NCBI GenBank assembly: GCA_000934665.2
Contig: JYFJ02003019.1
Span: forward strand, 1-47,708
Reading direction: 5' to 3'
Origin: Catajapyx aquilonaris
Taxonomy: Eukaryota
DNA length: 47,708 nucleotides
The position numbers and the translations under genes were made by a program. Shown in pieces: positions 4,827 through 47,506 of this stretch. The notes under the pieces are model-generated. The model was given only the letters and a program-made list of their open reading frames with translations. It searched no databases and had not been told where the DNA came from. Position 1 is the stretch's first letter. Every line of letters begins with the position of its first letter.

Positions 4827-4827
<1 letters not shown>

Positions 4828-5458: not shown

Positions 5459-5569
5459 TATACATTCCATTTCCACTTTTATTTCGTATCTGAATGGAGA
5501 GAACATGAAAATTATTACCGTCACTCTACTAATTTACACACGGCGTTTCCTTCGTAAAGTAGGCTTAGC

Positions 5570-5630
<61 letters not shown>

Positions 5631-5755: not shown

Positions 5756-7856
5756 TTACATTTATAAGGTTACTCAAATATTAGGCTTGTCCCGGCGAAC
5801 CCCTTCATACAAAGGTGTTGGAGCAGTTGGCTGGTAAGTATTAAAAATCCAGCATAGTGTGTAAAGATCAAAGTTGTGACAGAGTGAGTTTTCAAAATGA
5901 TCCAGACACGACGACGCGACATCTCGCATTCACTGATTATTCTCATTTCACTTAGCCTACGCTGTTCTTTTCATCAGCTGCTGACAATGACTACATACTT
6001 TTTCCATTATCCGGAGGCTTTGTCAGTGCTATTTTAGATACATGAACAGCCAATCAGTGCACTGACAAAATGTCAATCGATTCGCTGGTAAGAATCTCAT
6101 TATAACCAGGCTAATAAAATATATCATATGGATATTATAAAAGGCCTTTCTGTCACGTAACGAGACACAAGCTTTAGGAGTACTACCAAGAAATTAAAGC
6201 AATATGCACCTGATCATTTCTTCTGCTGTGTGGTTATAACTGTTGTAGCAGCCGGTTCTCAAGCAACAATATGTTATTCCTGTCATAAATTCGCATTCAT
6301 GGGAAGGACCTTTATTTCTCGAAATTATCTTGGGAAATGTTAGCATGCACTACATGAGTAATCTAGGCACATTTTATCTATGGCCTCACTGTCAGTGTTT
6401 AAGTTTAGTCGAGGTTATCTTAAAGAGTGCAAACTTATCTTTCTTTGTACACACCGTAGATATTAAACACACAAGATAATGTTATAGTTCTTGCACCCTA
6501 GCTACAAAAATAGAAGCGAAAAGAGTATATCTATTTATGGGACTGCCTGCCGGGAGGTAACAATGAACCTTTATTGAAACAAGGTTTTCTGACGAAACTG
6601 CTAATGAGGGAAGACCATTAAATAATTCAAAAGTATAATTTTCTAAATATTCGGGCAAACAAATGTGAATACAGTAACAGTAGTTAATGTTCAGCTAAGA
6701 AATAACTAGATCATATTGTAGCACTGTAAGCAAACAAAGAAAATTACAAAAACTCTTTGCGTACTGTAGAGTAGAGTCATACCAGCAAAATACCGTGTAA
6801 GCAGGCAGTTAGAAGTGAATGCTGCGGTGGCGGAACATTACACAATATCCAGTGATAAAAATAGGATATACGCTATGCTATTCCACCCGTTGGGTTGAAT
6901 AAAAAATAAGTTCGGAAGTCACGTTCGTCATCTAGAAACTTTCTAACACTACCCTAAGCACGAACATGTAGCCAAACTTTTCTCTTGACGTTCCCTCCAA
7001 TAAGAATCGTCAACACTAATTTGCATTTAAATGTTTTTAAATTAGAAAGAAATACCTGTGAGGTCTGCCTAAATGAAGGTGCAGGTAACGAAGGAATGAC
7101 AAGTGTGATTCTTTCTGAGCTGTCGAAATGAAGGAGGCAAGCATGTCCTCACACTGCAAAGTCAGTTAAAATTAATGTGTTCACTGTACAATATGTACAA
7201 AACTCTAAACTGGAAGATAATGTTTCTTAAATGTACATCTGAATTATCGGAGTCTGTCAGCAGAGCGCTGTAATTTTGCTGCAAACCTATCCAACTCTTA
7301 CCACAATGATATGCGAGGTCTCACCAACGCTTCTGTGTACTGTTATATAAGTCAGCGCCTCGTTTCTCATTGCCTGTCGGTTTCTACAGGTATTGCAAGC
7401 GAGTGTAAGGCTTTATTCTGCGATCAATTTCGGGTGACTGGCGAACCTATGCTTGTTTTGCAAGTGGCGACGAGTTATGTATGGCCCAATAATTCTGCTG
7501 ACTGGTTTCTGTTGACTGGAAAATCTAGACCCAAGTACGGCTTCCTATACCCACGCATTATCTTTAGAAATGCGAGCGCTTATTGCCCACTCAATTTGCC
7601 TCCCTCCAGCAGAACTACCTCCATTCCCCCATCCATTCCCTCCAATGAACCGCATATGTGCGGTTTATATTAAATTGGGCCTGCCTTGATCAAGTCTCAT
7701 TGCTACGGATTACTGAATGCAAAACAAGCAAATAAGTTAGTCAGTGATAGGTCTACCTATCCACAACGGACTCTGGACACAGCTGAAACTTGTCCATTAT
7801 GGTCCCGGCGCGGAGCGGGATTTTCAATATGTTTCTCTCGTATAATGAATAGACCC

Positions 7857-8116
7857 TAATATGAGGGGTATGGTGGGAAAATGTGAGAAACATTTTTGTC
7901 ATTTTGGACCTAAACACCAAGCAACTATGTAGAAGACATCACAAACAGTTTGGTATACTCCAAGTTCACATATCATGCACGAGAGGGCAGCACGGACTCG
8001 TAGATCAAACCGGCATTCCCTATGATTTTGTGAAGAGAATGCAAACTTAAATTCGCTCTCCTGAAAAATTACACTTTTGTGGGTTATCACCTTTTTCTAC
8101 CACACCCATCATATTA
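7857..8116. mobile_element. About 260-bp MITE, copy 1
   Basis: TIRs TAATATGAGGGGTATGGTGGGAAAA / TTTTCTACCACACCCATCATATTA; a homologous copy lies in inverted orientation at 40733-40990. Confidence 0.85.
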
Positions 8117-11100
8117 GTCTATATTATACTGATATATGATAGTCACATGTACTGTAAATACTGAAAGCGATTATTAGTCGCGGCCCCATCAAGGAGGTTC
8201 CACATCCCGGAAACATCACGAACAATTCTAGCGTGACGAATTCAGGATCACGCATTTCCTCAAATTATGCATTACGTATCAACTATTAAACTCCTCGCTA
8301 TCAATCAGCAGAAGACGAGCGGGATCAACAGTCTTTCCGCTGAGGTCATCCTGAACACCCCAGTCCTTCACTACTGTATACAACTGGAATATAAAGCAAG
8401 TTGGGAGAGTTTTAAAAAATGTTTTTAATGATGGAGGTTACTTCTGCCTCTGTAAATCCAAACCATTTTCACCTTGCTGGCTGCGGTGTTAAAAACACCA
8501 TTGGAGCTAGAAGTGTAATTGAGGTGGACAAAAGCGACCTATATCCCATCTGAAAACCGGTAAACCTGTTTGCTGACGCCCAGACAATGAAAATCCAGGA
8601 TCGACAATCGAATCTTAGCCAACCGTATAATAGTAATCACCCCTCGATGATACTTCTACAGCCGCCCAGGCCAATGCCCTTTTTCCGCACTGTGACGCTA
8701 ATAACGCAGCATTGCAGAGGATTCATTTTTGCACTCCAATGCCCACCACAAATATATCCCCCAGATAGCTTAATCAGATGATCATTTTTGAAGAAATCCG
8801 GAAGAATGCTTTAAAAAAGGAAGTAACTGGATGCTATATGCGTGATAAGAAATGTTCGTGCGTTGCGTGCTGTCAGGGCACAACGTACCGGGCTAGATCC
8901 TACACACCTGATAGCTGTCGCAGGAAGGACTGTAAACGATATTCACAGAGAAATTACCCCACCTGTTTTGTCCCATCACAATAGCTAAGAAGTAATGGCT
9001 ATTTTTGTCACTGTTGGAAAGGGAGGTATGACGTCACAAAGTGGCGCGAAGATGGGAACTTCAGGGGTTGGGGNGGGGGGGGATGAAAGGAAGGATCGAT
9101 CCTGGGGATTGTTATCGATTGAGGGCGGGGTTTCCTATAAACGCATGTGTGTCTTTGGCAAAGCGATGCCCCCGCCACTAACCCCCAACGCCAACCTCAC
9201 GTCCAGCCATAGAGGCATGGTTTCCAAAAGCATTCCTCTTCGTATTCTTTTGGATGTTCATATCAGCTGACGCTTTTGACACCCAGAATATCGACAACCA
9301 TGCGTGATTCTGGTCTTCCCACACCAAATTATCATGTCACAGATGCCACTAATATCATCCCATTGCATTGGGATGATTATAAGGTGCGTACGATATGATG
9401 GGAAGCACCTGCTAAATGGCAACCAAAAACTCCGAAAACCCATTGTTTTACGAACTTATTGGTTGCACAGGAGTGATAAGTGTACTTAATTATGCTATAT
9501 GTCACATGCAAATGCAATATTGGCTTAATTCATTAATATCCTTAATAAAACTTAATGAATGGCTAATGTAAATGTAAAAGAGTGGTATATATGAACGTAC
9601 TAACTGTTAAGTCTGAAACCTTACAGACTGACTGGAAAAACGTGATTTTGGTGTCAGTTCGGTGAAAATTCACGGAAATCCGAACTCTCTCACAAAGCCC
9701 CTGCGCTGGTTGCAGCAGAATCGCTTGCATTCCGATAAAATCACGTGCAACCAGACCGATATATTGTATACTCAGCTTGGTACTCAGAGACAGAAGAACA
9801 TTTTCAGAGACAGTTGCACTGAGAACATTCTCATACAGGGGGTGGAAGAAAGTTTTGTCAGAATTTATTGTAACAATGGGGTTGACGAAAAATATACTGA
9901 CGTCACGTGAGTCCAAGGTGTGTATCATATGTACAGGGTCATTGAAAAAGAATGCGCGTATTTTAAAACCCTATAACTCGAAGACTTTGTAGACATATCT
10001 TAGTCATTTAAGTTTTGAAATACTAAGAAAGGTCTAAAGTTTTGGTCTCACTTTAGTTTAAAATCTGCCTTCTGGGTTTTTAAAAAATGAAAAGATTTAA
10101 TCACACCTCGTGCATTTTGTGGCACAAGACATATCGCGACCATTATTGCTTTGTGTTGGCCTGAAGCTATTTACAGGGCCATGTGCAGGTCTATACGTCT
10201 ACTGAATGAGAGGACATTTTAACCCTATACCTGAAGAGACGCTGAGTGCACTAACTTCGCAGAATGGCACTTTAGAGTTTAGAGTACCGTATTGAAGAGA
10301 GGAATTTTGTAACCGAAGTTGCGAAGTTTTCCAGGGTTTTCGCTACATGGCATGCCTGTCGAAAGAGAAGGAACACGGTTGCATGTATAATGCAGTCCTC
10401 TCATGTTAGTTATTTCCTCGTGTAAACTTTTTCTGTTCAGACTAGGTCAAAGTAGGGAAGGTGAAGTGAGCAGGAGGCGTGACTTGTCACAAGTGAGTCA
10501 AGGTGGTGTGAAAAGGATGTCGCGATACTTTCGCTAAGAGTTAAACTGCCTCATTATCTCTTCCGGTAAAAAAACAACAAAAGGTAGGGCTAAGAACTTA
10601 ATGGCGTCCGTTCTTCATTGATCTACAGTACATTATCTGTTGAGTGATGGTCTTTTCATAAAATGTTTCTTACGTCATGTTCAAAGTCTATATCGTTTTT
10701 CCATATATTACTGACATATGTAGACATCTACTTCCTAACATGCTAATAAAATATACGGTAACATTAAAGTTATGTATAATAAATAGGTTGCAAAATTGTG
10801 TAGTTAATATGAAATTCATTAAACGAAAAACTATGATGAACAGTAATTACACATATTACGCGGTACACTGAATGCTCTAATATATTGCATAAAGGTATAT
10901 ATATTAGCTGCTGCAATCATGCCAAAATAGTATGGAGTATACGGTATATGAAATTGAAATAAAGTGAAACCTGCCTCTAGCATACCTAACGGGGGGAAAC
11001 TTGTGTATTAATTGAAAAAATTAGCGAGAAGAAACGATTCCGCTTAGCAAGCACCACTGTGCGCACAAGGCGGACACTTAAATCCCTCAGCATGAATTGT

Positions 11101-11529
11101 ATCATCCACTAGGTGCTTGTGCATAATTCAGGTGCATATGTGCATAATTTTACTTATTGGATGGGATGTTACATAAAAATTAATAGTCTAATACATGGTA
11201 TTAATTTAGTGCATTAAGTTTTTGACGTATTTGCCCAATTTCAACATTCGCCTTCACATTTAAATGCAGAATGTGTGAAAAGCTATAATCACATTTTTTA
11301 AAATTCGTAATTTGTATTCGAATGGCAAACGACGCTGCTTAATTATTCAAGTGCAAAGCCTGTGAATATTAAAATCCTCGTATAGGGCATTAAAGGACTA
11401 TTTTCCATTTTCTGCCTGTTTAAATTTTCATGTGTCTAGCAGTGTTCAAGCTAGATTAACAAAGTACCTAAGCAAGTTATAACTGTTCACGACAGGCTTA
11501 TCAATACGTATTACCTCTGGTATTACATA

Positions 11530-11696
11530 CAGAGTGTTCCAGATTTGTGGGTCACTTTTTAATAACTGACATCTCCCGATAGCAGTTATTTTTGTAGCTT
11601 GTTATGCCCCTAACCCATTCGTGCCCACTGGGGGTCGAATATAGCATTGGGCGATATCAGTTATTAAAAAGTGACCCCCGAATCTGGAACACCCTG
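11530..11696. mobile_element. Tc1/mariner-type MITE
   Basis: About 40-bp TIRs CAGAGTGTTCCAGATTTGTGGGTCACTTTTTAATAACTGA / TCAGTTATTAAAAAGTGACCCCCGAATCTGGAACACCCTG, with TA on the left flank. Confidence 0.8.
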
Positions 11697-12087
11697 GTAA
11701 AATCGCCGTCGATAAATAACTGAATCTAAAAAATTACGCGAATGATATTTAACGCCATCGTTAGTTATGTCAGTTAAACAGTCGCTAGGTAAAATTGCGC
11801 ACACACTCTCCTAAATGTGCACAATATATTAGGTTCGATTGAATAATATTATATAGAGAGTGCATATTTCCTACCTGAGAGTTATTCATGTCATAATATA
11901 TTGACGTACGCATAATTTGACGTGCGCACATTACATTCGCTGGAAGGGTTTTAATTTTGAACACGGAACTCTTATTAGGTGAACAACGCACAATCCTCCG
12001 CAGCAGGCCATGAATAATTTTCCTTCATTAGTGCACCTCATCTGTTACAGGGATACCTATATGTGTTGCATATTTCGATGCACCTAT

Positions 12088-12334
12088 GGGACGTACGGTG
12101 GTGCAGTGATTAGCGCCACAGCCTTCCACCTCTGAGGTCCCGCGTTCGATCCCCTGGTCGGACAGTGGATACTTATGTGGTTGGGTTCTCTCCGTGTTCA
12201 CGTGTGTTTTCCCTGGGCTCCCACTATCAAAACCCATCGGAGTACAGGCAAATGATTAAAGTCGGGTATTTAAAAGGCGATCCCCTAAAAGGCCCAAGAA
12301 GGCCTATCACGGGATATCTATCTATCTATCTATC

Positions 12335-12403
<69 letters not shown>
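12088..12403 (+). mobile_element. tRNA-derived SINE, family A (V-domain-like body), full length
   Basis: A box TGGTGCAGTGATTAG, B box GTTCGATCC, body similar to 16585-16830, (TATC)n(ATT)n tail, TSD TATTTCGATGC[A/G]CCT at 12071-12085 and 12404-12418. Confidence 0.9.
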
Positions 12404-12407
<4 letters not shown>

Positions 12408-13279
12408 TCGATGCGCCTTCAGGGAACACCAAACAAATCACGGAGAAAACAACTTTGCATAAATTCGGCGTTCTCAAATTTCTATCATTGTTTTTCTCGC
12501 ACTAAATAGTACCAGTTTGTGGCATATTAATTTTTCAATAATTCTGCCTAATATACTGTATATAGACGTCTTTACGCTTTTTCGAGGAATTTCCCTATAA
12601 GAGTAGGCCTACTATTAGCTCTTCGTGTACGACGCAATCCTACAGACGTACAGTACGCAATGGCGTACACTGGCAACAAGTGGGCAGGATCGGAAATGAC
12701 GGCTCTGGTGCCATGGAACTTCGATTCGGATTGTGTACAGATCCCACGCTGAGCTTTGTGTGTGAAACACAATCACCGCTAGGAATACTGCTTCACGTTA
12801 CACGTGCCACACTATAACTTGATAATAACAATTAGCTATGTGGAAGAGCCCGGGCATAATAATGGGACAAGACGACAGAAGCAGCTTTTAGAGTATACGC
12901 TTAGCTGCGTTCCACAGCGTGAAAACCCAGACTTCGTGATGAATCTCGATAGCTCGCAGGAAAATGAACATTTATCCCCCACGTTAGTAGACCAGCAAGG
13001 GATGCTCCGTTAGAGCAGTGTGATTATACAGGACGCTAATTAAGTAATGCAACGTAGTCTCACGACCCACAATATTGTCGCAAAGTGTAGTTAAGCTTCA
13101 GGGATTCGCTACAGATACTGATGTGCGATAACGCAATGAGTAAAAATGTTACTCATATGTACCTCTTGGGGCACTTTTCACTGAAGAAAAAATATAAAAG
13201 ACACCATAAAAGTAACCTACACCCATTTTTAACTATATTAAGCTCCAGTCGCAGGAACAATTCTATAGGTGTGGTCGAC

Positions 13280-13358
13280 GTAACTCTTGGTTGAGGATCG
13301 AACCCATGACCTTGGGTGTGAAACTAGGTGGTAGCCTTATCCGCTGTACCCCCATCCT
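13280..13358 (-). mobile_element. Degenerate tRNA-like SINE head fragment
   Basis: Minus strand GGGGTACAGCGGATAAGG...GGTCATGGGTTCGATCCTC (A/B-box spacing); no intact cloverleaf. Confidence 0.45.
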
Positions 13359-13594
13359 CTGACATTTGGACTATCTAATACAATCGTCATGTCAGGTAGA
13401 CCAATAACACAAAATGGCATTCTCGTACAATATGACGCAAAGTCAGCAATGAGAATCTGGTTAGTTGAAAACAATGTTGCTATGCATTTTGTATAGTAGT
13501 TGTTGCCAAAAAAGACCTTACAGTATATCAGGAATACTGCATAGTTTCTTTACTTCACATGTGGCTGTTCTCAGCAAATCACAGCGTGACACAC

Positions 13595-13935
13595 CTTTTT
13601 TTCTTATACCCCATTAGAGAGAACTGTGCCCTTTTCAGGGGTGGCACACCACCATATTTTCAATTTTCAAGTGATTTTTTCTTCAAGGTCCGTGCAGAGA
13701 AGAAAGGACATGAAGTAAGGATGGGAAATTTTAGGGGAGGAGACACGGGTGCTGGTGCAATGTCTGAAACAGGGTCATGTGCAGTCTCCCTGTAGGTTAG
13801 GTTGCCAGACGCCTCCAAGGCGCGGGTTAGAGACCCTCCTGAAGCAGGCGAAAGGAACTCCCGGGCGGGGATCGAACCCGGGACCTTCCGCTCAGCAAGC
13901 CGAGTCGTTATCAACTCGGCCACCATGCCTCCCAT
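13595..13935 (-). mobile_element. tRNA-derived SINE, family C, full length
   Basis: Minus strand GGGAGGCATGGTGGCCGAGTTGATAAC...GGGTTCGATCCCC; similar to 21000-21359; A-rich tail; perfect TSD GCGTGACACAC at 13584-13594 and 13936-13946. Confidence 0.9.
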
Positions 13936-14555
13936 GCGTGACACACGTTTCTAATAGATATGACGCATAATGCAATTGAACGATCGTTATTGGATTGAGT
14001 CAGGAATTAGGCACTTCCATGCGCAGAATGAAGACGGGCAGATGCTCCAGATTAATGCTGCCGGGAATTGTCATTTTGATCGCAACCTGTCATTTTCTCT
14101 CCCGCTGGCGTTTAGCCGCAGATAACTCTGACTCGCCGTTCAGCATCAGACTACTCTAGAAGTTACAACGCGCGCAGTTGTCCAATAAATCACTGAGAGC
14201 GATTATTATGGCTGGTAGTCCTGTACATGATGCCGCGGGCAGGAGCAGAGATCACTTTCCGTGTGCTCGTAGTCCAGGGTTAATTTTGTTAAGCGCTGTA
14301 ATTCGCACAAAACTCAGGTTTCTCCCTTTCAGAATTAACCTTCCTAGAAAAATGATTTTGGAAAATTATGATACGTGCCTAGTACCACAGGTGCAGGATA
14401 CCATTCATATAGTAGAAAAGTACCCCGGTGTTGTGCTGAAAAATGTATACAGTTGAGGCGCTACAGCAGCCCTGTAAAGTTTGGGCAACAACTTCTAAAT
14501 AGCTATTGTAGTAATGTTAAAACTTAAAAGTGACTCGGACTATATATATATATAT

Positions 14556-14619
14556 ATTTCTCTGTCCATACTAAACATTATATTGCAATATAATGTTTAG
14601 TATATATTGACAGAGAAAT
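14556..14619. repeat. Perfect 36-bp palindrome with 11-bp outer arms
   Basis: ATACTAAACATTATATTG|CAATATAATGTTTAGTAT at 14568-14603; ATTTCTCTGTC / GACAGAGAAAT flanks. Confidence 0.9.
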
Positions 14620-15003
14620 GTGTCTTTGACCCAGTTTTGATACATGATGATTACTCTGCAGAAAGACCCCTTCGTATGATACAAATAACGCAGATAAGAA
14701 TGTTCAGTGCTAGTCGTTCAGTGCAAATTGAACGGAAATTACAAAAACGCAATAAATAAAGGCGATTTGGAACCGTTCTATTGAGCATAATAATCCCGTC
14801 TCGCTTACTCGATTCACAGACGTTTCATATCACCACGCCATTAGTTATATCGTGGGTTCTCTTACTGTCTTTTAATATGTATAGGCTACTAAATGAGAAG
14901 CACTGAACATTCTGATTTGCATTGTTTCTTCGAATAAGGCGTTACTCTTCATAATCATGTAACAATTAGGTTCGGTGAAGCATTTCTCAGTCTTTACTAG
15001 ATA

Positions 15004-15268
15004 CACTGTACTCCCGATCATCCGGGCTAATGACTGCATGGGTGTTTCCGGATAATCGGAAAACCCGGATAATAATCAGAAAATTGCCCTGGACATAGTA
15101 AGAAATGAGCGGCTATTCACAGGTTTTTAATGTACTAACTGTATAGAAAGTATGCTACTTGGTTGAATCAAAATTTTAAAAAACTTACCATAGATTTTTT
15201 ACTTTGTCTTCTAGAAAAAGTCTTATATTTATTTGTTGGAAAATCCCCGGATAATCTGGGGTACAGTG
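15004..15268. mobile_element. MITE with TA TSD (pogo/Tigger-like ends)
   Basis: TA|CACTGTACTCCCGATCATCCGGG ... CCCGGATAATCTGGGGTACAGTG|TA; internal CCGGATAAT repeats. Confidence 0.8.
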
Positions 15269-16584
15269 TATTTCATTTGGACGAGTCATTGCTTACCACA
15301 ATAGCTATATAAGGGGAAGTGGGGAATCACTGTACTGTGTACACTGATTTTGATATAAAAATTTGCAACTTTAGAACAACTCCGTAAGCCCCAGTTTACA
15401 GCCAATGGTATAGTTGGCAACATAATTATATACAGGTAAAAAGTGCAACCGTCATGTCTTTTCTTATCGAATGGTATGTACCAGAATCCATAATACCTTA
15501 CCATTTGCTGTCTCGCCACTTCATGGAGTAAAATTATATTAAAACCGCACCTTTCCTACGGCGTGTATGGTGCAGGTAGATTTTGCTCAGCAACATGTCA
15601 TGCCAACCTGACGACTGGCTACCACTTTCAAATTAAGTACGGAGTTGCTCCACTTCCCCTTGTTTAGAAGTTGTTGCCCAAACTTTGCAGGCCTGTACAG
15701 CCTAAACCGTACATTTTTGACAAAGCACCACAGGACTTCATGACCCCTCTGGTGTTATGCGCATGTATCACATTTTCCAGATACAAAAAAAAACATAGCA
15801 TTTGAATCGACGAATATTGTTTTTCATAGCACTATTCAGAACTTTCAGCAAGAAAAATGTCACTTTAAAATATTCTGGAACAGTATTTTATCTATCGTCC
15901 GACACTAATTGCAGTTAAAATCAAAGAGTCAGGTATGTACAAAATCGTGATCCAACGCCACCCTAAAGTATTGCATTATTATGCAAATTAAAAATTTGCG
16001 AATGATTTAGCCAAAACGATCTATACGTGTCACTCAAGCATGATATACAAAGGAATTCCAACCGCTTGATCCAAAATATACAGTGGTCAATCTGCATAAC
16101 TTTCATGTGCCCCACAATTGGATCTGTACAGTGAGAGACTCGCCAGTCAGCAAGTTTTGCGCAAGCATTGTGTCGAGTGAATGCTTGGCATATATAGGGT
16201 AGGGCCTACATAATTTAGCTCTGCAGCATGCAAAACTCATTTCAGGTAATTGAATTTAGTTCGCTCCAAATGTGTGTTCTAGCAGAATATTTTCGCCATT
16301 GTTACTTGGCACTATAAAACTGTTTGCAACTCAACCTAAATACTTCGAAAAAGTTGACGCAAATGGATGGGCATTAATTCTGCCTGGGAGCATTAAAAAA
16401 AAGCCTCAGACCATTTCAAAAGCGAGTTTTGTGTCCCCCCCCCCCCCCNCCCCCCCTCCAAGTTGGTGGCGTCAAATAATTCTATACTCGTAGCTTTCAA
16501 TTGAATAATTCAGTCACCGACTGGAAGTTTTGATCTTCGTATAACCTGAAGTTAGCCACCTTGCACAATATACTCAACCATAAG

Positions 16585-16759
16585 ATACTTATGTGGATAG
16601 AGTTTCGATGGGTTCTCTCCGTGTGCGCGTGGGTTTTCTCGGGGTTCTCCCGTTTCCTCCCACTATCAAAATCCATCACATTACAGGCAAATGATTAAAG
16701 TCGGTTATTCAAAAGATGATCCCCTAAGAGGCCCAATAAGGGGCCTATCACGGGGTATC

Positions 16760-16830
<71 letters not shown>
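16585..16830 (+). mobile_element. SINE family A, 5'-truncated copy
   Basis: Aligns to about 12169-12403; GTTCTCTCCGTGTGCGCGTGGGTTTTCTCGGGGTTCTCCCGTTTCCTCCCAC body; (ATT)n tail; TSD TCAACCATAAG at 16574-16584 and 16834-16844. Confidence 0.9.
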
Positions 16831-16833
<3 letters not shown>

Positions 16834-18818
16834 TCAACCATAAGGGACGGCTGTATGAACACAAATTAAACACTTGAAAATAATCTCACTTTTCTTAAAG
16901 AACTGGTAGAATTCGTAAAGTCAGATTCTGCTTAGGCAAGATTTTGTGTCGAGAAAATGCCGGAATTTGTAAATATTTGTGCCAAAGCAGAAACATTTTC
17001 GATTATGTACAGATCCTTCATAACCGGAGATTTCGTACTTAATTTGCGTTAATGCAACAGGACCCAATACTATAATCTAAATTAGCCATTCTGTATGTGT
17101 GTCCTATACAGCAGTACTGGAGCGCTCCCCTTTTACCAGATTAAGCACACAAAAAATTCATGGGAATATCCTACTAGAAAACTACCACAATTCAAGCTCC
17201 ACAGCAGCAAAGCAAATGCTCAGCATTTGACAAAAGCTATAGTAAGAACCAGGGCCCTCGTGCCTACTGGGCCGTCAACGTGGCAATTAATTTCGGACAG
17301 CGTTTCCGGTATAAAGCTATAGAGAGCGTGTACAAAAATCAGCATTTTGAAAGAGCACATTTGAATTCAGATGCACCGTGTGTGAACCCTGTCCAGTACA
17401 CTGAAAAAACGGACTTACCGTCAGCAGATCCGAAATGCTCAGGCATGATGTCCGACTTCCTGCGTTCTGCCATGGTGCCTCAGCCCACCTGGAAAACAAC
17501 AATAAATTACCAATCATGTGCTGAGTGCTCGCAGATTCGCGAATAATTTATGACATCCCTCGCGGCCATATTCAGCTTGCATTATGGCACAAGCCAAATT
17601 ATCATATACGTAGTTATCATATCGTAGTTAAGAATATGAATCAATACCGAGTTGTAAAATCATGGGGATTGGCTTTTGACATAATTTATGCCCATTATTT
17701 CAGTGCATGTGAGGGTTTGGATACCGATGTACTGTATGTGCACACTGACGAATACAATGGATATTTCGATTTCAATGTTCACGAAATCATGCCATTACAA
17801 TTACATCGCAAGAAGTTTTTTAAACCTGGTACAAATGCAGGTATTTTTGGACTGTGATGAGAGACAGGTATAGTGAGTTCATCCTCATACGTCAGCTCCC
17901 TCCCACTGCCTCATGTGGATGCTACCCCCTACGGAAACTCAAACGCAATCACTGAGGGCGATAAGAGGCTCAAAAAAGACGCGGAGTTGTCATTTGACAC
18001 AAAGTAATATGTCAAGCATGACAACGCGCATCTTGCCGAGTTATTGTCGTTCTATGAAGTTGTGTTTGTGGCCGCAGCAGATATGGCTGTGACTCTGTGA
18101 GTGGGAGTTGACCAAGGAACTGAAGGAAGCTGAAAACACTCGAATCGTTCATATTACATATTTTATACATATTAAGCCTGCAAAAGTGAGAAGAGAGACA
18201 AATTCGTTTATACAATATGACTTCAATAATTTGTTGTACTTATTACATAGAAACCCGTCACATCACGAATGATTCAGTGTATCGCCCCCGTATATAAATC
18301 GGGCCAACTGGAATTCAGGTAATATCGATGTTGTTCGTTGAGCGGTTGTGATTTCCGCAGCAACATTTATAAATATTTCATTACTGATGCACAATATTAC
18401 GTTGCATTAGTGGTACAGCGCATATTCAGTAATTATCGACAAATTTGTGGCAGGTGTACAGTACAGGGTGTTCAATAATAAATTACTGTATCATGTGCAC
18501 TCTGCAGGTAAAATGGAATTAACCTATCTGCAGTACGTGTCCTATTAAGCGTTTAATTACAGAATGTTTACCTTATTTTTGGTTGAGAGGTTTGTTCTGA
18601 ATTTACCATATTAGCAGGTAATTTTTGACAACCTCTAAAAGAGGCACAAAGTAACTAAGTATACTTAAAAATAACCAGTTGAATGTTAAGAAAATTTCTA
18701 ACCACAACGGACACTTCCATTGGAACACACTGTATGATATGAACAGTGTGTTTTAAGAATAAGCTCACTGAGTACATGGGAAGTTTTTCTATCTGTTCAT
18801 AAAATATAATATATATGA

Positions 18819-19160
18819 GGAGGGAAGAGTGGCGCTGCGGTAACGTATGCGCCTACGGATGTTAAGGTCCCGGGTTCTATCCCAGCCCGGGGTTCCCCCC
18901 TTCATCTCGTGCAGAGTTGGGCCATCTCTGGCTTCGTCTCGGGTGTAATTTCCTTAGACTAATCCACCCAGGGGAGTTCAAAAAATGACATTAGCAACGA
19001 CATTGCACTGCACGTTGCACATCCCCTCCTGTCATCCTGCCCGTGGGCCCGAGCGTTTCGTAAATGGTTCCAAATGTGTGCATATACATGTAATGTACAA
19101 TTGGGTAATAATAAAAGTCCGTGCGAAGATACCGATAAGGTGAAAAGCACTACCCCTACG

Positions 19161-19230
<70 letters not shown>
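18819..19230 (+). mobile_element. tRNA-derived SINE, family B, full length
   Basis: Head GTGGCGCTGCGGTAACG...GGTCCCGGGTTCTATCCC; high similarity to 21801-22015 and 47205-47350; (ATT)n tail; ATAATATAT on both flanks. Confidence 0.9.
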
Positions 19231-19232
<2 letters not shown>

Positions 19233-20999
19233 ATATATGGAAGCACTTACTTCCCGTACGCTACAAATAACACTGGTCAAAGATTCACATCACTTCCTCT
19301 CCCTGCTAAACAAATTTAATCAACTTCACCTGATTTCCCTGTGAGAACTTTTCAAAGGGGGATTTGCATCCCTTCTGTTAGGCCTATAGGTTTTTACCTG
19401 CGAGGATACCTATGAGCATTCCAATTCAGCAAAGAAACAGCTGATGGATGCCTTCCTTGTCAAAGATATTCTCTGAATATACAATCAATTTCCTTTGAAA
19501 TGAGTCAGGCAGCACTTTGTACCTCGCAATAATATCCAATCTCCAATTTGATACAGGGTCCTCATTATTCCCACACTTATGTAAAACCCGAACCGTCTCG
19601 AGGCTTACGCGTTGAAAAGAGAGCGTATACAGTGAAATGCATAAAGAAAAGTATGTCGAGTGAGCCCTTGGGTTCGTATTTTTGAACACGCATCCAGGTG
19701 TTCCGTTTCAGAGAGCAGGAGACCACGAACTTCCTTTTACTATTAAAAAACACACAAAAAAAACTCAGCCTCATCCTCTTACAGAGACCTACGGTAGTGG
19801 AAGTAATCAAAACCTCTACTTTGAGTCTGACGCTATACTCATTACTTGACTCCACACTTTATTATAAACAAACAAAAAATCTACAGTATCAGCTATATAT
19901 CACAACGCTTGCCTAAGATTCTAGGAAAGTAAGTATTTTGTTTTCCTAATCTTTCAAGGGAAAAACATTATGCAAAAAATTCATATGTGACACCTCATTC
20001 CAAACCAACGATTCCACTGTTCTAAAGTGACATACTCTATACGTGACTTCTCGAGGGGTACTGTAGGACTATCTTTTGGAAAATCCACACAACGGGCAAT
20101 ATTTACCTCTATATACTAATAAAATGTCTCTTTCAAAATGCATTTTGTAATCTATTGCAATGCAGCTCTAATACTACGCTGTACAACAGCATAAGGTAAG
20201 TTATTCATCTATTTCACAAGCAGACATGGTGTTGTATAGTCTACAGTAGATACGTCCTGCTACATATGCCATAAAGTTAACAACATTGTCAGGTCAGCGA
20301 CGTGAGGAGTATTTTAGCATCAATCACGGGCAATGAACGCTTATTTGATGATGCAATATGCCCCATTGTTCAACAGCTTTCACATCAACTAATGCATGTT
20401 GCTATCGACGTCTCCCATATCCGATTTTCTCCCATAATTTCAAGAGGATTTCAACCTTACCGCAAATCTGCCTGCATAAAACATTGCAGGCCTGCAGGCA
20501 TTCAAACTTGCGCCAAAAACGTTGGGTAACTTAGGAACATGTATTATTAGGCCTATCCTGTAGGTTCCATAACAATAGCCATTCCTTAATAAAAATTCAT
20601 GATCCTACTAAGCAATGAGGTCTTACATTGTTCTAAAAAAATTCTCAAAATGGCTGAAACGGGAGCAGCGAAACAGGTGGAATGAGAATTTATCATTGAG
20701 CTCAGCGTTTTGTGCCCCTTCTGAGATGCTCTTATTGATGCATGGGTCTGAAACGTGTCCATAAAGCCACATAAAACTCGGCGTACACAGCTGGATTGAA
20801 GCTATTTAGCCTACCTACAGTTGCATACTAGTACCCTGCGGAAATTAAATATCTGACTACAGAGCCATGCACGACACTACTTCCACTGGGACGCAGAAGT
20901 TGTCTCCCAATTCAATTGTAATAATTCCCGTTGCAATGACTTGGCTTCCTTACACCCTCCTCCCAGCTGCACGCACCACTGACTCACAGTACACTGTTT

Positions 21000-21359
21000 G
21001 GGGGAGGTGTGGTGGCCGAGATGGTAACGTCTCGGCTTGCTGAGTGAAAGGCCCCAGGTTCGATCCCCGCCTGGGGAACTTTCCTTTCACCTGCGTCAGG
21101 AGGGTCTCTGACCTACACCAAGGAAGTGGCAACCTAACCTCCTGGGGGACAGCACATGACCCATTAGCTACGCCATTGCACCTTGCACCCATGTTCCCTC
21201 CCCAAAAATCCATATCCTTTCCCATTGTCCTTGTTTCCTTGCACCGGTGAAAGAAGCGAAAATATATACAGAAAATTGATGGTGGTATGCCACCCCCCTA
21301 TAGCTCCCGTAAGGGACATCACGGGGTAAAATAAAAAATAAATAAATAAAAAATAAAAA
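21000..21359 (+). mobile_element. tRNA-derived SINE, family C, full length
   Basis: A box TGGCCGAGATGG, B box GGTTCGATCC, A-rich (AAAT)n tail, TSD AGTACACTGTT at 20988-20998 and 21360-21370. Confidence 0.9.
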
Positions 21360-22119
21360 AGTACACTGTTGGGATGAGAAAGTGTGACCCAGTAAAGTGC
21401 TGTATTTCCACAATCTTCCCATAACGTAGATTAATCTCTCCACTTTCAAATGATTCTTACTGTAAAATTTACTATTGTCATATTGCGGTAGCTGGTGGAT
21501 ATTCAATCAATGCTTAGCTGGCCAAATGTAATAATTTACCATTCATAATGGCACGTGCAGCACTCGTTTTTTAAAGTACTGATGTAGGCAAGGACTGTAG
21601 GTATAAACTGTACTACCGTAAATGGTGAATCAATATTCATAAATTAAAATCAAATCAAATCATTTCAAATCTAATCATTATCAGGATTTTTAAAACACAA
21701 AAGGCAATAAATTATCACCCTCGTATGTACTTTTTCCGCTCCCCCCTTTTTACCAATTAATCAATCTTCTTTTTTTACTGATATTAATATGGAGCTGTAG
21801 GGGGAGGCGGAGTGGTGCTGCGGTAACGTATGCGCCCACGGATGTTAAGGTCCCGGGTTCGATCCCAGCCCGGGGTTCCCCCCTTCATCTCGTGCAGAGT
21901 TGGGTCGTCTCTGGCTTCGTCTCGGGTGGATATTTCCACTAGACTAATCCACCCGGGGGTGTTCACAAAATGACCAATATGCGACATTGCACTTGCACTT
22001 TGCACATCCCCTCCTACTTACCCTTGGAACAATTAAATAATATCACATTATATGGTTCCAAAAATGGTGGTATTCCACTCCCATAAAAAGGGCCCAAGGG
22101 CCGAGAACGGGGTACAATT

Positions 22120-22427
22120 AATATATATTAATTATATTATACCGTATATTATATTATATTATCATATGTTAATTATATAATATTATATAATATAATATTA
22201 TATAATATAATATTATATTGTTAATAATTGTTATAATGTTAATTATATAATATAATATTATATAATATAATATTATATTGTTAATAATTGTTATAATGTT
22301 AATTATATAATATAATATTATATAATATAATATTATATTGTTAATAATTGTTATAATGTTAATTATATAATATAATATAATAATATAATATAATATAATA
22401 TAATAGTATATAATATAATATATAATA

Positions 22428-22476
<49 letters not shown>

Positions 22477-23083
22477 GATACCCCGTGCTCGAGCCATTCG
22501 GCTCGTTTAGGGGGGAGGGGGAAGGTTCCCAAGGGGGGGCATCCTCGGTTTATAGTCACTCACGACTCTCTCAGATCACCAGACCTTTTCTCTGACCCCG
22601 GGCAGCTAAGGGGGTGCAATGCTGCCCCGGCGTGTCGGGTGAAAAGCGGAAAAAGACCCGGCCAAGCAGAGGTGACGGGGACGGGATTTGAACCCCGGCC
22701 TCCCGCTTGGCTAGTCAGTGGTGTAACCACTAGACTACCACGCCTCCCTTATATATAATATAATATTATATATAATATAATATTATATATAATATAATAT
22801 TATATATTATTATATATCATATATTAATTTTATTATACCGTACCGGTATATTATATTATATATTATATTATATATTATTGTATATCATATATTAATTTAT
22901 TATACCGTATATTATATTATATTATATATTATTGTATATCATATATTAATTATATTATATATTATTGTATATCATATATTAATTATATTATATATTATAT
23001 CATATATTAATTGTATTATATATTATATCATATATTAATTGTATTATATATTATATCATATATTGATTATATATTAATTATAT
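22120..23083. repeat. AT-rich low-complexity/minisatellite tract including a 60-bp unit in about 3 copies
   Basis: 22201-22260 and 22261-22320 are identical and 22321-22380 nearly so; TATATCATATATTAAT variants repeat at 22810-23065; interrupted by SINE D. Confidence 0.9.
22429..22748 (-). mobile_element. tRNA-derived SINE, family D, nested in an AT-rich tract
   Basis: Minus strand GGGAGGCGTGGTAGTCTAGTGGTTAC...GGGGTTCAAATCCC head; ends CACGGGGTATC(AAT)n. Confidence 0.85.
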
Positions 23084-23476: not shown

Positions 23477-23576
<100 letters not shown>

Positions 23577-36100: not shown

Positions 36101-36630
36101 AAACGTATTACACTCTTATTACATATTCATCAGAGGGTCTGTTATGGTAAGCAGTATAAGGGTTCGCTGGTATGGAGTATATAACTCGGAGTGAATAAAT
36201 TCGTGCTTCAATATCAGACGCCACCTCATGTTATTTCGTTCGATCATATTAGGCTACTTTAGCACTTTTTATAAGTGTAGTCTTAGTCTTACAACCGAAA
36301 CCGCACAATCCTGCTCCGTTTTGACGTATAAAAACTTGCGTTCCGGAGCATAATTCCCAAGGGGGTAACCACTCCCCAAAACCCGGTTCCAGGCCGGTTC
36401 CACAGGGACCATGTACACCGGTTCCACGAAGTGGCTATCCCCTCGATAATTCCATACCAATCCTATTTTGCGTAGTATAATAAAAAGATCCTGCTATAGG
36501 AAAACGTATACCGTATCTATAGAGTAGTGCACCGACCCGAACAATCACAAGCAGAAAATTGAAAAAATACGCAAATAATGGAACCCATGGTATTTGTTTC
36601 CATATTTTCTGCATAAAAATCGCCCACTCG

Positions 36631-36957
36631 GTTGGTTGGTTGGTTGGTAGGAAGGGTTACCCAGCTTGTATGGCTCTGTCTCAGTCGAGCCTTGGCAGCC
36701 GGGGGTAGGAGAGGAAGGTGTGGGATTGCAAGGTAGGGGTGGGTGAGAAGGGCGGGGGAGAGGAGGGCTGGCCCCGGCTGTACTGCAATGCCGGGTCCAA
36801 CCCAGGGACGGGGGTGGGATATTCTCCCAAGCACCCCGTCCAACCAAGAAATACGAGTCTGGTCCGAGGACCGCTCGAGGAAGAGAGTACCGTCGCTGGC
36901 GAATCAGCCGGGACCTCATACAACCTCATGTTAGCATTTTATATAAAAAAAATAAAA
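36631..36957 (-). mobile_element. TSD-flanked short retroposon carrying a U2 snRNA 3'-half domain and a (CCAA)n tail
   Basis: 16-bp direct repeat AAAAATCGCCCACTCG at 36615-36630 and 36958-36973; (GGTT)n at 36630-36648 on the plus strand; U2-like segment at 36852-36765. Confidence 0.75.
36765..36852 (-). pseudogene. U2 snRNA-derived 3' fragment (Sm-like site, stem-loop III, stem-loop IV)
   Basis: Minus strand ATTTCTTGG-TT-GGACGGGGTG...CACCCCCGTCC-CT-GGGTTGGACCCGGC-ATTGCAGTACA-GCCGGGGCCAGCCC. Order and sequence match the insect U2 3' half as recalled (ATTTTTGG...GACGGAGTG...GGGTTGGCCCGGTATTGCAGTACCGCCGGG). The U2 5' half is absent. Confidence 0.8.
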
Positions 36958-37186
36958 AAAAATCGCCCACTCGTTTCTTCCGAAGGGAAAACATTGGATG
37001 ACATACAGCACTAGCAATGCACGTTGCGGTATCAATTACGCCACTCAAGTCTTCGACAGAAAATGATCAGACCAATGTTGCAAGGCCTCTCGAACGGGTT
37101 TATTACGTTTTCTAAATATCAAATGACGCATAGGTTAAACTGTATGTAAAATATAACTCTCCTGTGTAGATATGCAGAAAACACGT

Positions 37187-37192
37187 TTTATT
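37187..37192 (-). promoter_or_regulatory. Polyadenylation signal of the secreted-protein gene
   Basis: AATAAA on the minus strand about 93 nt after the TAG stop; a second AATAAA at 37104-37099. Confidence 0.6.
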
Positions 37193-37284
37193 GCGTTATA
37201 TCTGTACAAATATTACATTCGCATGAGAGTCGTTTTCCAGCTTGGTCAGTTGCAAAAGGGGGACCTGCGCAATACATCAATTGA

Positions 37285-38417
37285 CTAATAATGTTTGTGA
37301 ACCTTGACAGGGACAGGGACTGGAACGTGCACTTTGTGCACTACTGGAACCTTGTGAACGACAGGGACCTTGTGAATGACAGGAATCTTGTGGACGACGG
37401 GTATTTTGTGGACCACGGGAACCTTATGCACCACTGGGATCTTGTGGACCACTGGGATCTTGTGGACTACCGGAACTTTGACCACTACAGGAATCACCTT
37501 GTGCTCCGTCTTGTCCTGTAAAATTATCTCAGCTTAGCTACGGTGTCCGAAAGGATCAGTTGCACGATAGGTTTATGAGCATTACAGGGATAATTTTTAA
37601 TGAGGATGTTCATAATAATCGTATAAGGAAAAGTGAAGTGTAGTTTTTTCCTACTCAGATCCTAAATGGTAATATAAATATTTCGAATTCGGGAATTGGC
37701 ATTTTTAAAATTTTAAGTGGGCACGGAAGTCATTAGGAGCTTTGATCGTCTGATTTTTACGGCAATAACAGCTGATGGGGATTTTTTATAATAATATATT
37801 ATTTACTATTTTGACATTAATGAAATAGGTCTATTGGCGTGCAATATTAGTTTCCCATTTTATAACCCAATGTGAAGGGATCTAGCAATGTGCAACGATA
37901 GTTGTGTAATCATCGATGCTATCAAATGTAAGTTTCAGTAAATAATAAGCAACACTAAAAGTGGTACATTTTCTATCATTGCCGTAAAAAGTTGGGAAAA
38001 AATTCTCATACGATCCTAAAACCTTCAGTGCCCATTTTAAGTCGAAGTAATGGCAAATTCTCAAATTTAAAATCCGAATTTCCAAATTGCAGGAAAAATA
38101 TATTAAAGTTTCACTTTCCACATAATACAATAGGTATACAACCTCACTAAAAATATATTGCGTCAAAACTGATCCTGCAACAAATCCTTTGTGAGTTTCC
38201 AACCCTCTCTCGCCTGATGTCGGACTTACGTCATGCCCACCACCATATCCGCCACCGAATCCTCCGCCAAAGTCTCCTCCGAAGCCATGCCCTCCTGTCT
38301 CGGCACACACAATCACAGCAGCAGCGGCGGCCAACAGAAGAACCTGACGGAACATGTCTTTAGACATTCTTTGCTTTTGACTAGTGCAAATATCGGCTTA
38401 CTTACCAGTCTAGCCAT
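37285..38417 (-). CDS. Three-exon gene, complement(join(37285..37515,38230..38343,38406..38417)), encoding a 118-aa secreted low-complexity Gly-rich / His-Lys-Val-Pro-repeat protein, probably a cuticular or other extracellular structural protein (CPG/CPLCP-like, no R&R motif)
   Basis: Exon 1 CAAA-ATG GCT AGA CTG|gtaagt; 62-nt intron ending ccgtcag; exon 2 VLLLAAAAAVIVCAETGGHGFGGDFGGGFGGGYGGGHD|gtaagt; 714-nt intron ending ttttacag; exon 3 DKTEHKVIPVVVKVPVV(HK[IV]PV[VI])x7HKVHVPVPVPVKVHKHY-TAG. Both introns are phase 0 and the frame is kept. MARLVLLLAAAAAVIVCA looks like a signal peptide. Repeat units differ mostly at third codon positions. Confidence 0.9.
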
Positions 38418-38509: not shown

Positions 38510-40732
38510 CGCGAGCTGGGCTCGACACTTTCACGGCTGCTCAACCCAGAAACGCAAGGGTTGACAGAAATGAAGTAAGAGCGCGGATACTGTACATGCA
38601 CCCCCACTCTACGTGTGCACATGCAGGGTGCAAATTATACAATCCGGATATACACACTGACTGGATTTCTAACCGTGAAATTAACGACTTTTTTCCCTTG
38701 CATTATCTCATATTTCCAGCTTCCTTTTAATTTAACTAAACTTCTAGAGTATATACAACTCCATCATCGAATCATCATCATCGTTAATGTCGACATTGTT
38801 ATTTCTACAATACTGAATATTTTTCACAGGCGGCTATCATTTTAGCCCCGAGTGGCGATAAATCCTTGCAGATAATAATGCAATCTTAATGTCTATGTGC
38901 AATTTCCTTGAGGTTGATTTATGGCGCTGCAGCACCAATTCTCCTAATGGCAATAAAAGTTCCACATAAGATGCTTCTCGTTTTGGATTGCTTTCTGGTA
39001 TTAGACAAGGCAAGGCTGCACTTGGCACTAATTAAATTTATAAATAATAAGGTTCACTACCCACGTGCAGTACATGATCCCAGCGGGAGGTGCCACTTTT
39101 CTTTCTATTTCTGTTACAAAGAACAGAAGCGTGGAGGCAGGAGCCGCAGCAACACAACCTTGTGGTTGGGATTAAATGACAGTTAATCCTAACTGAAAAA
39201 TTATGTTTTTTTCTACTATCGGAAGACAAAATAATGTTGTACCAAAACAACAAATGAAATCGCCAATGTGAAGCTTTATTACTGACAAATTACGGTACGT
39301 TTTTATTATGACAACTCGTTATGCAGGCGAGTACCACCAACAACAGTTACTCTGCAATAAATTAGTGTCAAACTTCTCTCCGCATCATTCTGAGCTATGT
39401 ACGGTCTATATACGACAATTTCCCTAAAGTCATACCGGTATAAGCTGTTCTTTTCTCTTCAGTTACGGTCGCTTTGCAAACCATATTGAGCATACAAAAA
39501 TCGGATGCACGACACTTTCAGAGGCACCAAATGTTCAACAGACCGCTACCCTGCTAATTACATGGTCGTCTGAGAGAAAAATCAGATAAATACTAGCTTT
39601 ATTTTGTGTTCAGAGAGGATTACTATACCAGTGTCTCGCATCGCCAAATGCAGCTCAGGTTCCTAATGGCGGGATTTGTTTTTCAAAAACATATTTGCGT
39701 GTTATTCTAACAATCGCAAACTTGGGATGCCTTTAGTATTCGAAGTAAATATTAACTTAAGCTTTGCACACTCGAGAACCGTTGTAACTATAAACTAGTA
39801 TATTGTATACATATAAGTCAGCGACTATACACACTTTAGCCTGATGTATTAATACCCCCCCCCCCCCTCCCCAAGAGTGGAAGTGTCATGTCAGATAATT
39901 TCCGAGGCACCTTGTGTCAAATGCATTACATGACAACTCATGGTCTTGTATCCCTATAAGTCACGGCGTATGAAGTAGAATAGTGCGGGTATCAAGATAG
40001 TGGTTCAGGACTGTAGTTATAGCCACGGTCTTATGTTACAGCCATCGAACCAAACTTCCCTCAAAATGTTCCTTTCCGACCATTCACCTTCAAATACGAC
40101 GAGTTTCCTAATCCAGTTATCAATATATTGGAATTGTGCTTTTCCGCTGCTAAAGTTTACACAAGGTGAGTGACAACTTCTCCTCTTTGCTTTGTGGCAG
40201 GAGGGTCAGATAGAGTGGAATTCTGTTTCAGTGGTAGGGGTTGAGTGGTCCTGTGGGTTGGTTGGAAAACCTGCAATCCACCTATGTTGACGCCACTAGT
40301 GGCGTTAAGCTCAAAAATAGACTCTCAAGCATGACTACGAACCAATTTGACGCCTAGTGCGTATTTCGAAATAGGTTGGCCACGCAGAAGGATGGGTCTC
40401 GGTGCACCGAGCAAAATCGAATCCACAGCATGGCAAAAAAAAAGTGAGTGCAAAATTGGAAGGCAAAGGAGACCAGCACCTGTCTCCTGGTCGATTTCGT
40501 ATAAGAATAAAGCGAAAATGGTTTCTAAGATTTATCGTTTCTGAAGCGAGAGAAAGAAATTCAATTACCTTGTAACGATTGTGGCTGACACGAACGTGAC
40601 ATTTGACGGTATCTTATAATAAAATCTTATGGTCACAGATAACTCAACGACAGTTTCAGATTTAACTTTAAAGGCGTCACTTACCTATCACCTGGCACTG
40701 TATACATGTCCTGAGTGTATAGTATGGTCACA

Positions 40733-40990
40733 AATGAGGGGCGTGGTGGGAAAAGATGATAACCCACAAAAGTGTAATTTTTCAGGAGAGCGAATTTAAG
40801 CTTACATTCTCTTCACAAATCATTAGAGAATTCGGGTTTTGATCTAGTCCATGTTGTCGTCTCATTCATGATACGTGAACTTGGAGTATATACGAAACTG
40901 TTTGTCATGTCTTTCACATAGTTGCTACGTGTTTAGGTCAAAAATGACAAAAATTATGGTTATCACCTTTTTCCATCAGACTCCTCAAAT
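40733..40990. mobile_element. About 260-bp MITE, copy 2 (inverted relative to copy 1)
   Basis: GATAACCCACAAAAGTGTAATTTTTCAGGAGAGCGAATTTAAG is the reverse complement of the 8046-8088 region; similarity continues over the whole length. Confidence 0.85.
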
Positions 40991-44369: not shown

Positions 44370-45492
44370 ACTACATATTATTTGATGGCGTAACTTGGCT
44401 CTGTTTACTTGTACTGCGTTTGTATGCCGAAGGTTCTCCAAAATGATGGGAGTGGCCTGTATCTCCACTCTTTCCACTTCTTGTTGATAGTCACCTTATA
44501 ACTTTGGCATCATGGTAATTCTATATATATGGTACAGTACGTATGACGGTATGAGGCATTCCACGCTCAACTGGACCCCCCTCCCTGACAAATCTTTTCC
44601 GATTTCGACCAAACCCGAGTATGTTGTTGTACCCATGTTTCTGAGCAGGGCGGGCTCGTTTTGTTTGTCCCTGCGACGTGTGGTTGCATAACTATACAGT
44701 CTGCGAAAGATACCGATTTTTGCCAATTATACGTCCGTCCGCCATCAGTTGGAGGGCCATAACTTCGGAAGGCGCGGTTGACGTGGAATGCCTCATACGG
44801 AATATGCAAGCTGCAAGCTGTAAATTCATCTGAACTATACATTGTCGGTTCCGGATTCTGCAGTGCAGTTTTCAATTGACAATAGAATTTTCAAGAAACC
44901 ACGTAGGCCTACCTATTGAAACGCACCATGTTGGGGTTCTAGCCTACATTTTGCAAACCCATGCAAAGAATTGTCCTTATTTTTAAATGAATTTTGGTGT
45001 TTTCTGTTTGAACTGAGAAATAAATATTAGTTTTCGAGCTATGATCTATCTAAGATCATAATAATTATACGGTACTATCGTATTGCCCTCTGACGTCACT
45101 GTTGTCAAAGGATGGGTGAGAGGCAGGAATGCACCCGGGTTGCTTTGTTCCTTTGTTGCCTAACAACGGAATCGAACGACCGCAAGTAAAGCCGCGAGGC
45201 AAGGGCCTGCTGACGTCACTGTTGTCCCCTTGGTTAGGCAGGAGTGGGAATGCGCCTTTTAGGCCACGCCCCCGTTTTTCCCGCCAAGTTGCGAGTGAAA
45301 TTTAACCCCCCGATAATTTATCGAGGAATGACATTTTGGTGCCGAAAAGTGGTGGAATGCATGTTTATATGTATGGTTGAGCTATTCGTGTAGGCTACAA
45401 ATTACCCAAATCCCAGGCCAAAGCTAGGACCCCATTAGGCGCTTGTGTGCGAACAAAAATATGATTTCTATGAGAAGGCAGGATAAATGAAT

Positions 45493-47204: not shown

Positions 47205-47438
47205 CGTGCAGAGTTCGGGGTCATCTCTGGCTTCGTCTCGGGTGGGATTTCCGATAGACTAACCACCCGGGGAGTTCACAAAATGACCAAAGCAACGACA
47301 TTCCATTGCACTTTGCACATCCCCTCCTGTCATCCTGCCCGTGGGCCCGGGCGCGCGCTTCAATTAATAGGTTCCACTGTATAATGGTTCAATAAAGGTC
47401 CGTGTGATATACCCCCAATGGCCCCAAACCCATGATTA

Positions 47439-47502
<64 letters not shown>
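47205..47502 (+). mobile_element. SINE family B, 5'-truncated copy
   Basis: Aligns to 18908 onward; (ATT)n tail; TSD ATATCCTT[C/A]AAGTA at 47191-47204 and 47503-47516. Confidence 0.9.

Positions 47503-47506
<4 letters not shown>

Follow-up and report, generated by a model that had tools for sequence, protein, structure and literature searches.

The segment at 36615-36973 of the window, by which the whole analysed stretch of 47,708 nt is meant, raises the question of whether a short insert carrying what looks like the 3' domain of U2 snRNA is a decayed U2 gene, a single accident of retroposition, or one member of a mobile family, and, in the last case, which of its strands is the transposing RNA. 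A preliminary description, made from the letters of the window, had placed here a 327-bp insert with a perfect 16-bp target-site duplication (TSD), and both the coordinates and the description were found to be correct. The 16-mer AAAAATCGCCCACTCG at 36615-36630 is repeated exactly at 36958-36973, with 327 bp between the two copies (36631-36957). In 100 first-order Markov simulations, exact direct repeats of 16-mers lying 50-1000 nt apart arose by chance at a mean of 0.05 per window, which places the duplication far above chance; in the actual sequence, leaving aside the AT-rich satellite (about 22.2-23.0 kb), such repeats comprise the AAAAATCGCCCACTCG pair and one other locus (45090/45210). 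The latter is a 17-bp exact direct repeat at 45090-45106 and 45210-45226, 120 nt apart, and may flank a small insertion or represent a local duplication. The parts of the insert, with the strand given where one applies, are as follows.

36615..36630: left TSD copy, AAAAATCGCCCACTCG, identical to 36958-36973
36631..36648: tetranucleotide repeat at the end of the insert, reading (GGTT)4.5 in plus and (CAAC)n in minus orientation, from the sequence; longer by about 1.5 units in another copy
36649..36764: non-U2 body, rich in purines when read on the plus strand and in pyrimidines when read on the minus; other copies show indels here (16 and 8 gap letters)
36765..36852, minus strand: segment read as the 3' domain of U2 snRNA from its RF00004 match, its fold and its identity to real U2 genes
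36852-36844, minus strand: Sm-like site AUUUCUUGG, from the sequence
36841-36806, minus strand: stem-loop III, from sequence and fold
36803-36765, minus strand: stem-loop IV with the 11-nt loop AUUGCAGUACA (loop at 36789-36779), from sequence and fold
36853..36929: non-U2 body between the module and the AT-rich end, common to other copies up to about 36917-36942
36930..36957, plus strand: AT-rich end, then A8 T A9 adjoining the right TSD, from the sequence; other copies have other A-rich simple sequence there
36958..36973: right TSD copy, 16 bp, an exact repeat of 36615-36630 that starts with A5

The non-U2 parts of the insert amount to 105-106 nt on one side of the module (36852-36957) and 134 nt on the other (36631-36764). 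That such flanks exist had been claimed beforehand and holds; the lengths then given, about 80 and about 115 nt, omitted the AT-rich end and the tetranucleotide repeat and are to be replaced by about 106 and 134 nt. Whether the repeat at 36631-36648 is a 5' leader or a 3' tail of LINE type depends on which strand is read as the RNA, the plus strand giving the leader and the minus strand the tail; the segment 36930-36957 is probably the 3' tail of the retroposed RNA. Within the body next to the tetranucleotide repeat, a 44-nt hairpin (36660-36703) is the minimum-energy fold on the minus strand (z -2.12). No promoter was recognised on either strand of the element, and E-value scans with Rfam over both non-U2 parts and both strands returned no credible match to any other family. 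A head derived from tRNA, 5S or 7SL RNA and holding an internal promoter, which is a trait of canonical SINEs, was considered and rejected: ARAGORN called 0 tRNAs in the window, Rfam matched no tRNA to the element in either orientation, and nothing credible was returned by Rfam for either end on either strand.

The identity of the module was assessed by covariance model, by comparison with complete U2 genes and by folding. With 161 nt as input, the Rfam U2 model (RF00004) aligned its positions 103-185, out of 192, to the minus strand of 36765-36851, with a score of 26.2 bits and an E-value of 7.4e-4; all pairs of the match were standard. The covariance model finds U2 where the preliminary description had placed it, at a score below the gathering score of 46 bits. 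The Rfam scan of the whole window at the gathering threshold held no U2 match, and U2 was not reported by the E-value scan of 801 nt, the filters of these scans being laxer with less sequence. Scaled to the whole window and to all families, the E-value of the match becomes about 0.2 by our own arithmetic, and the RF00004 score taken alone is only suggestive. A 21-letter pattern from stem-loop IV was then searched in metagenome contigs and gave four loci, two of which (L002 and L004) are full-length U2 genes scoring 144.7 bits. In the stem-loop IV core, the element agrees with both genes in 22 of 23 bases, a match for which the expectation by chance is about 1e-7 per window (own arithmetic). 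Neither of the remaining two loci (L001 and L003) matched U2 at E up to 0.01 or resembled the element in any other way, and both were taken as chance. On folding, a 97-nt stretch containing the module gives precisely the two U2 stem-loops (-50.2 kcal/mol, z -3.79), and none of 200 shuffled sequences was as stable; the fold of the other strand reaches -46.9 kcal/mol, and a U-G pair of stem-loop IV on the minus strand becomes a mismatch there.

The 5' half of U2 (model 1-102, with the branch-point-interacting region and stem-loops I and II) gave no match in the scans of the element. Because the score lies below the gathering score and the 5' half is absent, the segment is neither a U2 gene nor a plain pseudogene. 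It has in common with a genuine U2 gene (RF00004) the Sm site, stem-loops III and IV, the U2-type loop and standard pairing, and differs from one in the missing 5' half and in its score, 26.2 bits against the 144.7 bits of L002 and L004. Judged on sequence, the segment 36765-36852 is U2-derived and represents the 3' domain only. The preliminary description is borne out on these points: the Sm-like site and stem-loops III and IV that it had attributed to U2 agree with the 26.2-bit match, the standard pairing and the 22/23 identity; its view that the insert is not a plain U2 retropseudogene agrees with a match confined to model 103-185, without the 5' half; its view that the insert is not a tRNA SINE agrees with the ARAGORN and Rfam results on both strands; and its picture of a chimeric element using an internal U2 3' module agrees with a U2 match that lies inside the insert, with non-U2 sequence on both sides.

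Copy number was assessed by mapping the contigs of four public runs, all of one sample from one study and possibly of the very sample from which the window was assembled, to the 1201 nt at 36200-37400. The word depth of the unique flanks was 19-35, and the summed depth over 36610-36937 (eight bins) was 3612-22952 in the four runs. The depth of the element is therefore about 170-800 times that of the unique flanks; since summed contig depth is not the same as copy number, this was taken only as an order of hundreds. In the bin 36938-36978 the depth was back to 35-90, and the drop to flank level falls exactly at the duplication. Each run placed 289-397 contigs on the 1201-nt stretch, about 60 of them belonging to a separate repeat at 36364-36445. 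Sorted by identity, the contigs of run X1 numbered 93 at 99% and above, 88 at 95-99%, 85 at 90-95% and 49 below 90%. At 36632, seven contigs in each of runs X2 and X4 diverge into unlike flanks (agreement 0.43-0.46), and one other copy has about 1.5 extra units of the tetranucleotide repeat at this left end (joint 36942->36630). Contigs of other copies reach across 36713-36879 and 36812-36917, and further ends of other copies fall at 36929 and 36942. Those over 36713-36879, which comprises the module with 52 and 28 nt beyond it, have 22 other letters and 3 gaps; because they span this interval, the U2 module must have both its neighbours attached in other copies as well. That the insert might be single-copy, an outcome which the preliminary description had named as fatal to its proposal, is not what was found: the element is highly multi-copy, and its other copies bridge the module and both neighbours. 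In the 47.7-kb window, neither the repeat search nor blastn at word size 7 returned a second copy; two patterns searched in public genome contigs and one in viral contigs gave 0 element copies each, and none of the four metagenome loci with the stem-loop IV pattern is an element copy.

The separate repeat at 36364-36445 is short, lies about 190 bp to the left of the element and is itself of high copy number, with a summed depth of 1140-3742 against about 20-35 in the flanks. It contains motifs of the GGTTCC/GGAACC type, and other copies of it have extra letters inserted at 36381.

Three traits of a LINE-mobilised retroposon were found together at this locus: a TSD, a tail at one end and dispersal in many copies whose flanks differ. 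We put the probability at roughly 0.8 that the insert is a young copy from a high-copy family, numbering hundreds of copies, of non-autonomous, non-coding retroposons that are mobilised by a LINE and carry a fixed internal module from the 3' part of U2. Pfam searches of open reading frames in the window found no LINE coding sequence. Judging from the anatomy of the insert, an endonuclease and reverse transcriptase encoded by a LINE would have nicked the target, with the first nick, in the plus reading, on the bottom strand at TTTTT/A. Element RNA would then have been reverse transcribed from its tail by target priming at the nick, and a staggered second nick would have produced the 16-bp duplication. 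The module would be 87-88 nt copied from the U2 3' domain, comprising the Sm site and stem-loops III and IV and stopping near the end of the mature RNA. It most likely entered the ancestor of the family once, by template switching or by capture of a fragment of a U2 gene or pseudogene, and would have been carried since then as a passenger.

The orientation of the element is the weakest step of this explanation. The plus strand, with its A-rich 3' tail, has somewhat better than an even chance of being the transposing RNA, and the minus strand a little less than an even one. On the plus strand the A-rich end runs straight into the A5 that starts the right duplication. L1-type endonucleases prefer to nick at TTTTT/A, and the A-rich end together with the A5 start of the duplication would accordingly put the first nick of the plus reading at such a site on the bottom strand. 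Beyond the shared body, three other copies have different A-rich simple sequence, two of them in forms of A8-T with GAAW repeats and one as GCAAGAACAAGAATAA. Three other SINE-like inserts in the window, in which AT- or A-rich 3' tails are followed by duplications starting with tail-like bases, were also counted for the plus strand.

20999-21359: SINE-like insert, A-rich tail, duplication of 11 bp with A as its first base
about 12084-12404: SINE-like insert with an (ATT)n tail and a duplication starting with ATTT
about 18815-19232: SINE-like insert with an (ATT)n tail and a duplication starting with ATA

The loop of U2 stem-loop IV binds U2B''/SNF. If the plus strand is the retroposed RNA, the U2 module is antisense in it, so that the AUUGCAG loop would not be presented. 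The preliminary description had read the element on the minus strand, with this protein-binding loop displayed; the U2 sequence is indeed sense on that strand, and the A-rich tail on the plus strand and the A5 start of the duplication speak against the rest of that reading.

The rival that survives best, possible if rather doubtful, takes the minus strand as the transposing RNA, ending in a LINE-type (CAAC)n tail, and regards the sense U2 module as a functional RNA domain kept by selection. Such a domain might, with the same doubt attached, provide Sm-ring and U2A'/U2B'' binding, stability or nuclear import. On the minus strand, where the U-G pair of stem-loop IV can form (-50.2 versus -46.9 kcal/mol), the U2 sequence is sense, and the module reaches to about the U2 3' end; both are expected if a reverse transcriptase switched to U2 RNA as its template. 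The number of units in the terminal (CAAC)n is variable, and the 44-nt hairpin lies 5' of it, an arrangement resembling a stringent LINE/SINE tail. The depth is highest in the left 60 nt or so of the element, at the (CAAC)n end; the profile along the element is bumpy, with a dip at 36692-36773, and does not decide the orientation. Against these points, the 5' end in the minus-strand reading would be a T-rich run that merges with the T5 at the end of the duplication, and different T-rich simple sequence would be needed at the 5' ends of other copies, which target-primed reverse transcription does not predict. Moreover, the duplication has only one base in common with the (CAAC)n tail, whereas the other tailed inserts of the window show likeness between tail and target.

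Retained pairing despite sequence drift had been put forward in the preliminary description as a sign of selection on RNA structure. At 5 of 327 positions (36682, 36753, 36842, 36853 and 36860), the copy in the window lacks the letter that most of the family carries, and a sixth site, 36880, has a minority variant; none of the six lies in a stem. A copy with so few differences is young, and intact pairing is therefore expected in it without any selection. Variants at a frequency of at least 10% number 0 in the 74 nt of the two stem-loops and 6 in the other 253 nt of the element, a difference which favours a conserved module in direction and is not significant (p about 0.2-0.3, own estimate). 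Selection on the RNA structure of the module is thus not supported, though not refuted.

A bolder form of the minus-strand reading, which we consider unlikely, makes the element a mobile snRNA-like unit. On the minus strand a TATA-like box is present at 36945-36937, and 28 nt downstream of it lies 36917, where two other copies end exactly; these ends also count for the minus strand as the transposing RNA. An RNA of about 153 nt, running from 36917 to the end of stem-loop IV, would combine a new 5' domain with the Sm site and stem-loops III and IV of U2, and would borrow the snRNP pathway (Sm-ring assembly, U2A'/U2B'' binding and nuclear re-import) for stability and nuclear access. If this were true, U2 snRNP proteins could also be titrated by the hundreds of copies in the genome.

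It is highly improbable that the insert is a one-off chimeric retrocopy, the product of a single template switch in the manner of human U6-L1 or U2-Alu chimeras: only a single copy lies in the window, and such chimeras are documented, as citations in the accessible part of PMC4494074 indicate, but the element exceeds its flanks about 170-800-fold in summed depth, hundreds of contigs match all its parts at 80-100% identity, and contigs with unlike flanks diverge at both ends of the element. Chance resemblance of GC-rich repeat hairpins to U2 can be given equally little weight, for although 26.2 bits falls short of the gathering score of 46, the window-wide E is about 0.2 and the wider Rfam scans lack the match, the 22/23 identity to the core of real U2 stem-loop IV (about 1e-7 expected per window) and the correct order and spacing of the Sm site and stem-loops III and IV, with no non-standard pair, tell against it.

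The family of retroposons favoured above has its nearest described counterpart in SINEU of crocodilians (Kojima 2015, PMC4494074). In the portions of that paper available here, these are short poly(A) retroposons with 5' heads derived from U1 or U2 and no recognised promoter, for which an origin by template switch onto snRNA is proposed; SINEU-3 joins U2 nt 1-32 to an 83-nt middle piece, and no SINEU is reported outside crocodilians. As far as this description goes, the present element resembles SINEU in being short, multi-copy and non-autonomous and in having U2 sequence, an A-rich tail, TSDs and no recognisable internal promoter. The two differ in that the U1 or U2 pieces of SINEU form a sense 5' head, whereas here the 3' domain only (model 103-185) is present, in an internal position and possibly antisense to the tail. 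The module, about 134 nt and about 105 nt from the two ends of the insert, does not form a head.

Mammalian chimeric retrocopies of snRNAs and tailless U2 retropseudogenes are among the cases cited in the same portions of PMC4494074. As described there, these are like the present element in that U2 sequence was moved by LINE machinery, TSDs flank it and template switching is the likely source of the chimera; they are independent single events, whereas here the chimera itself has been amplified to high copy number. Tailless U2 pseudogenes, by the same description, keep the 5' end and lose the 3' end, whereas here it is the 5' half that is absent. Utopia and Keno, according to the part of PMC4640811 that was accessible, are LINEs inserting at U2 nt 38/39, so that the downstream part of U2 starts at nt 39. 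These too present a non-LTR-type element joined to U2 sequence, as far as that text describes them. An origin from Utopia or Keno was considered and rejected on this basis: the U2 part here starts at about nt 100, with nt 39-102 missing, and the insert lies in a non-U2 target with a duplication of its own.

Among papers on U2-derived SINEs in the searchable full-text literature, as far as the texts were accessible, only crocodilian SINEU was found. As far as can be told, the element therefore represents a second, differently built family of U2-bearing retroposons that is new relative to the searchable papers; its likeness to SINEU is judged from description, and the family may already be present in Repbase or Dfam. 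A second family would show that capture of snRNA fragments by retroposons is recurrent, that a captured snRNA piece need not be the head, and that such a chimera can amplify without a recognised internal promoter. If the module is sense and conserved, the family would offer a direct test of the use of snRNP proteins by a retroposon; if it is antisense, it is simply carried along, in a repeat that is curious but otherwise ordinary.

The coding content of the rest of the window was surveyed with Pfam. Of 13 open reading frames of at least 120 aa, 10 were searched, leaving out 12114-12509, which is simple repeat, and two that overlap the element; these 10 matched 0 families. Stop-to-stop frames of at least 70 aa numbered 125, and 93 of them were searched, the rest being the 10 already scanned and 22 overlapping simple repeats, SINE-like inserts or the element. 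The 93 frames gave only a sub-threshold zinc finger (PF23477, 17.5 bits against a cut-off of 27).

Several other repeats were observed in the window. The SINE-like insert at 20999-21359 has an A-rich tail, the 11-bp duplication AGTACACTGTT and a partial inverted copy at 13728-13933. Its head contains the box-B-like motif GGTTCGATCCCC, the sole basis for its tRNA-like look; neither Rfam nor ARAGORN called a tRNA on the insert, and Rfam returned 0 matches at E up to 1 on 20990-21120. Further SINE-like inserts with long (ATT)n tails, some of them after (ATCT)n, lie at about 12084-12404, 16580-16831, 18815-19232, 21810-21975 and 47218-47506. They carry box-B-like motifs and 10-13-bp duplications starting with tail-like bases, and segments of their bodies are common to them at 81-96% identity (repeat families D7-D14). 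An AT-rich satellite (GC 0.25) extends over about 22110-23075, its repeat units measuring roughly 60 nt and 33/54 nt, and is followed by a long (TA)n at 23480-23575. Finally, 8007-8129 and 40717-40839 form a 123-nt inverted pair (I1), 84% complementary and 32.6 kb apart, with a direct match nearby (8064-8114 and 40940-40990; D12); the members of the pair are probably copies of another dispersed repeat.
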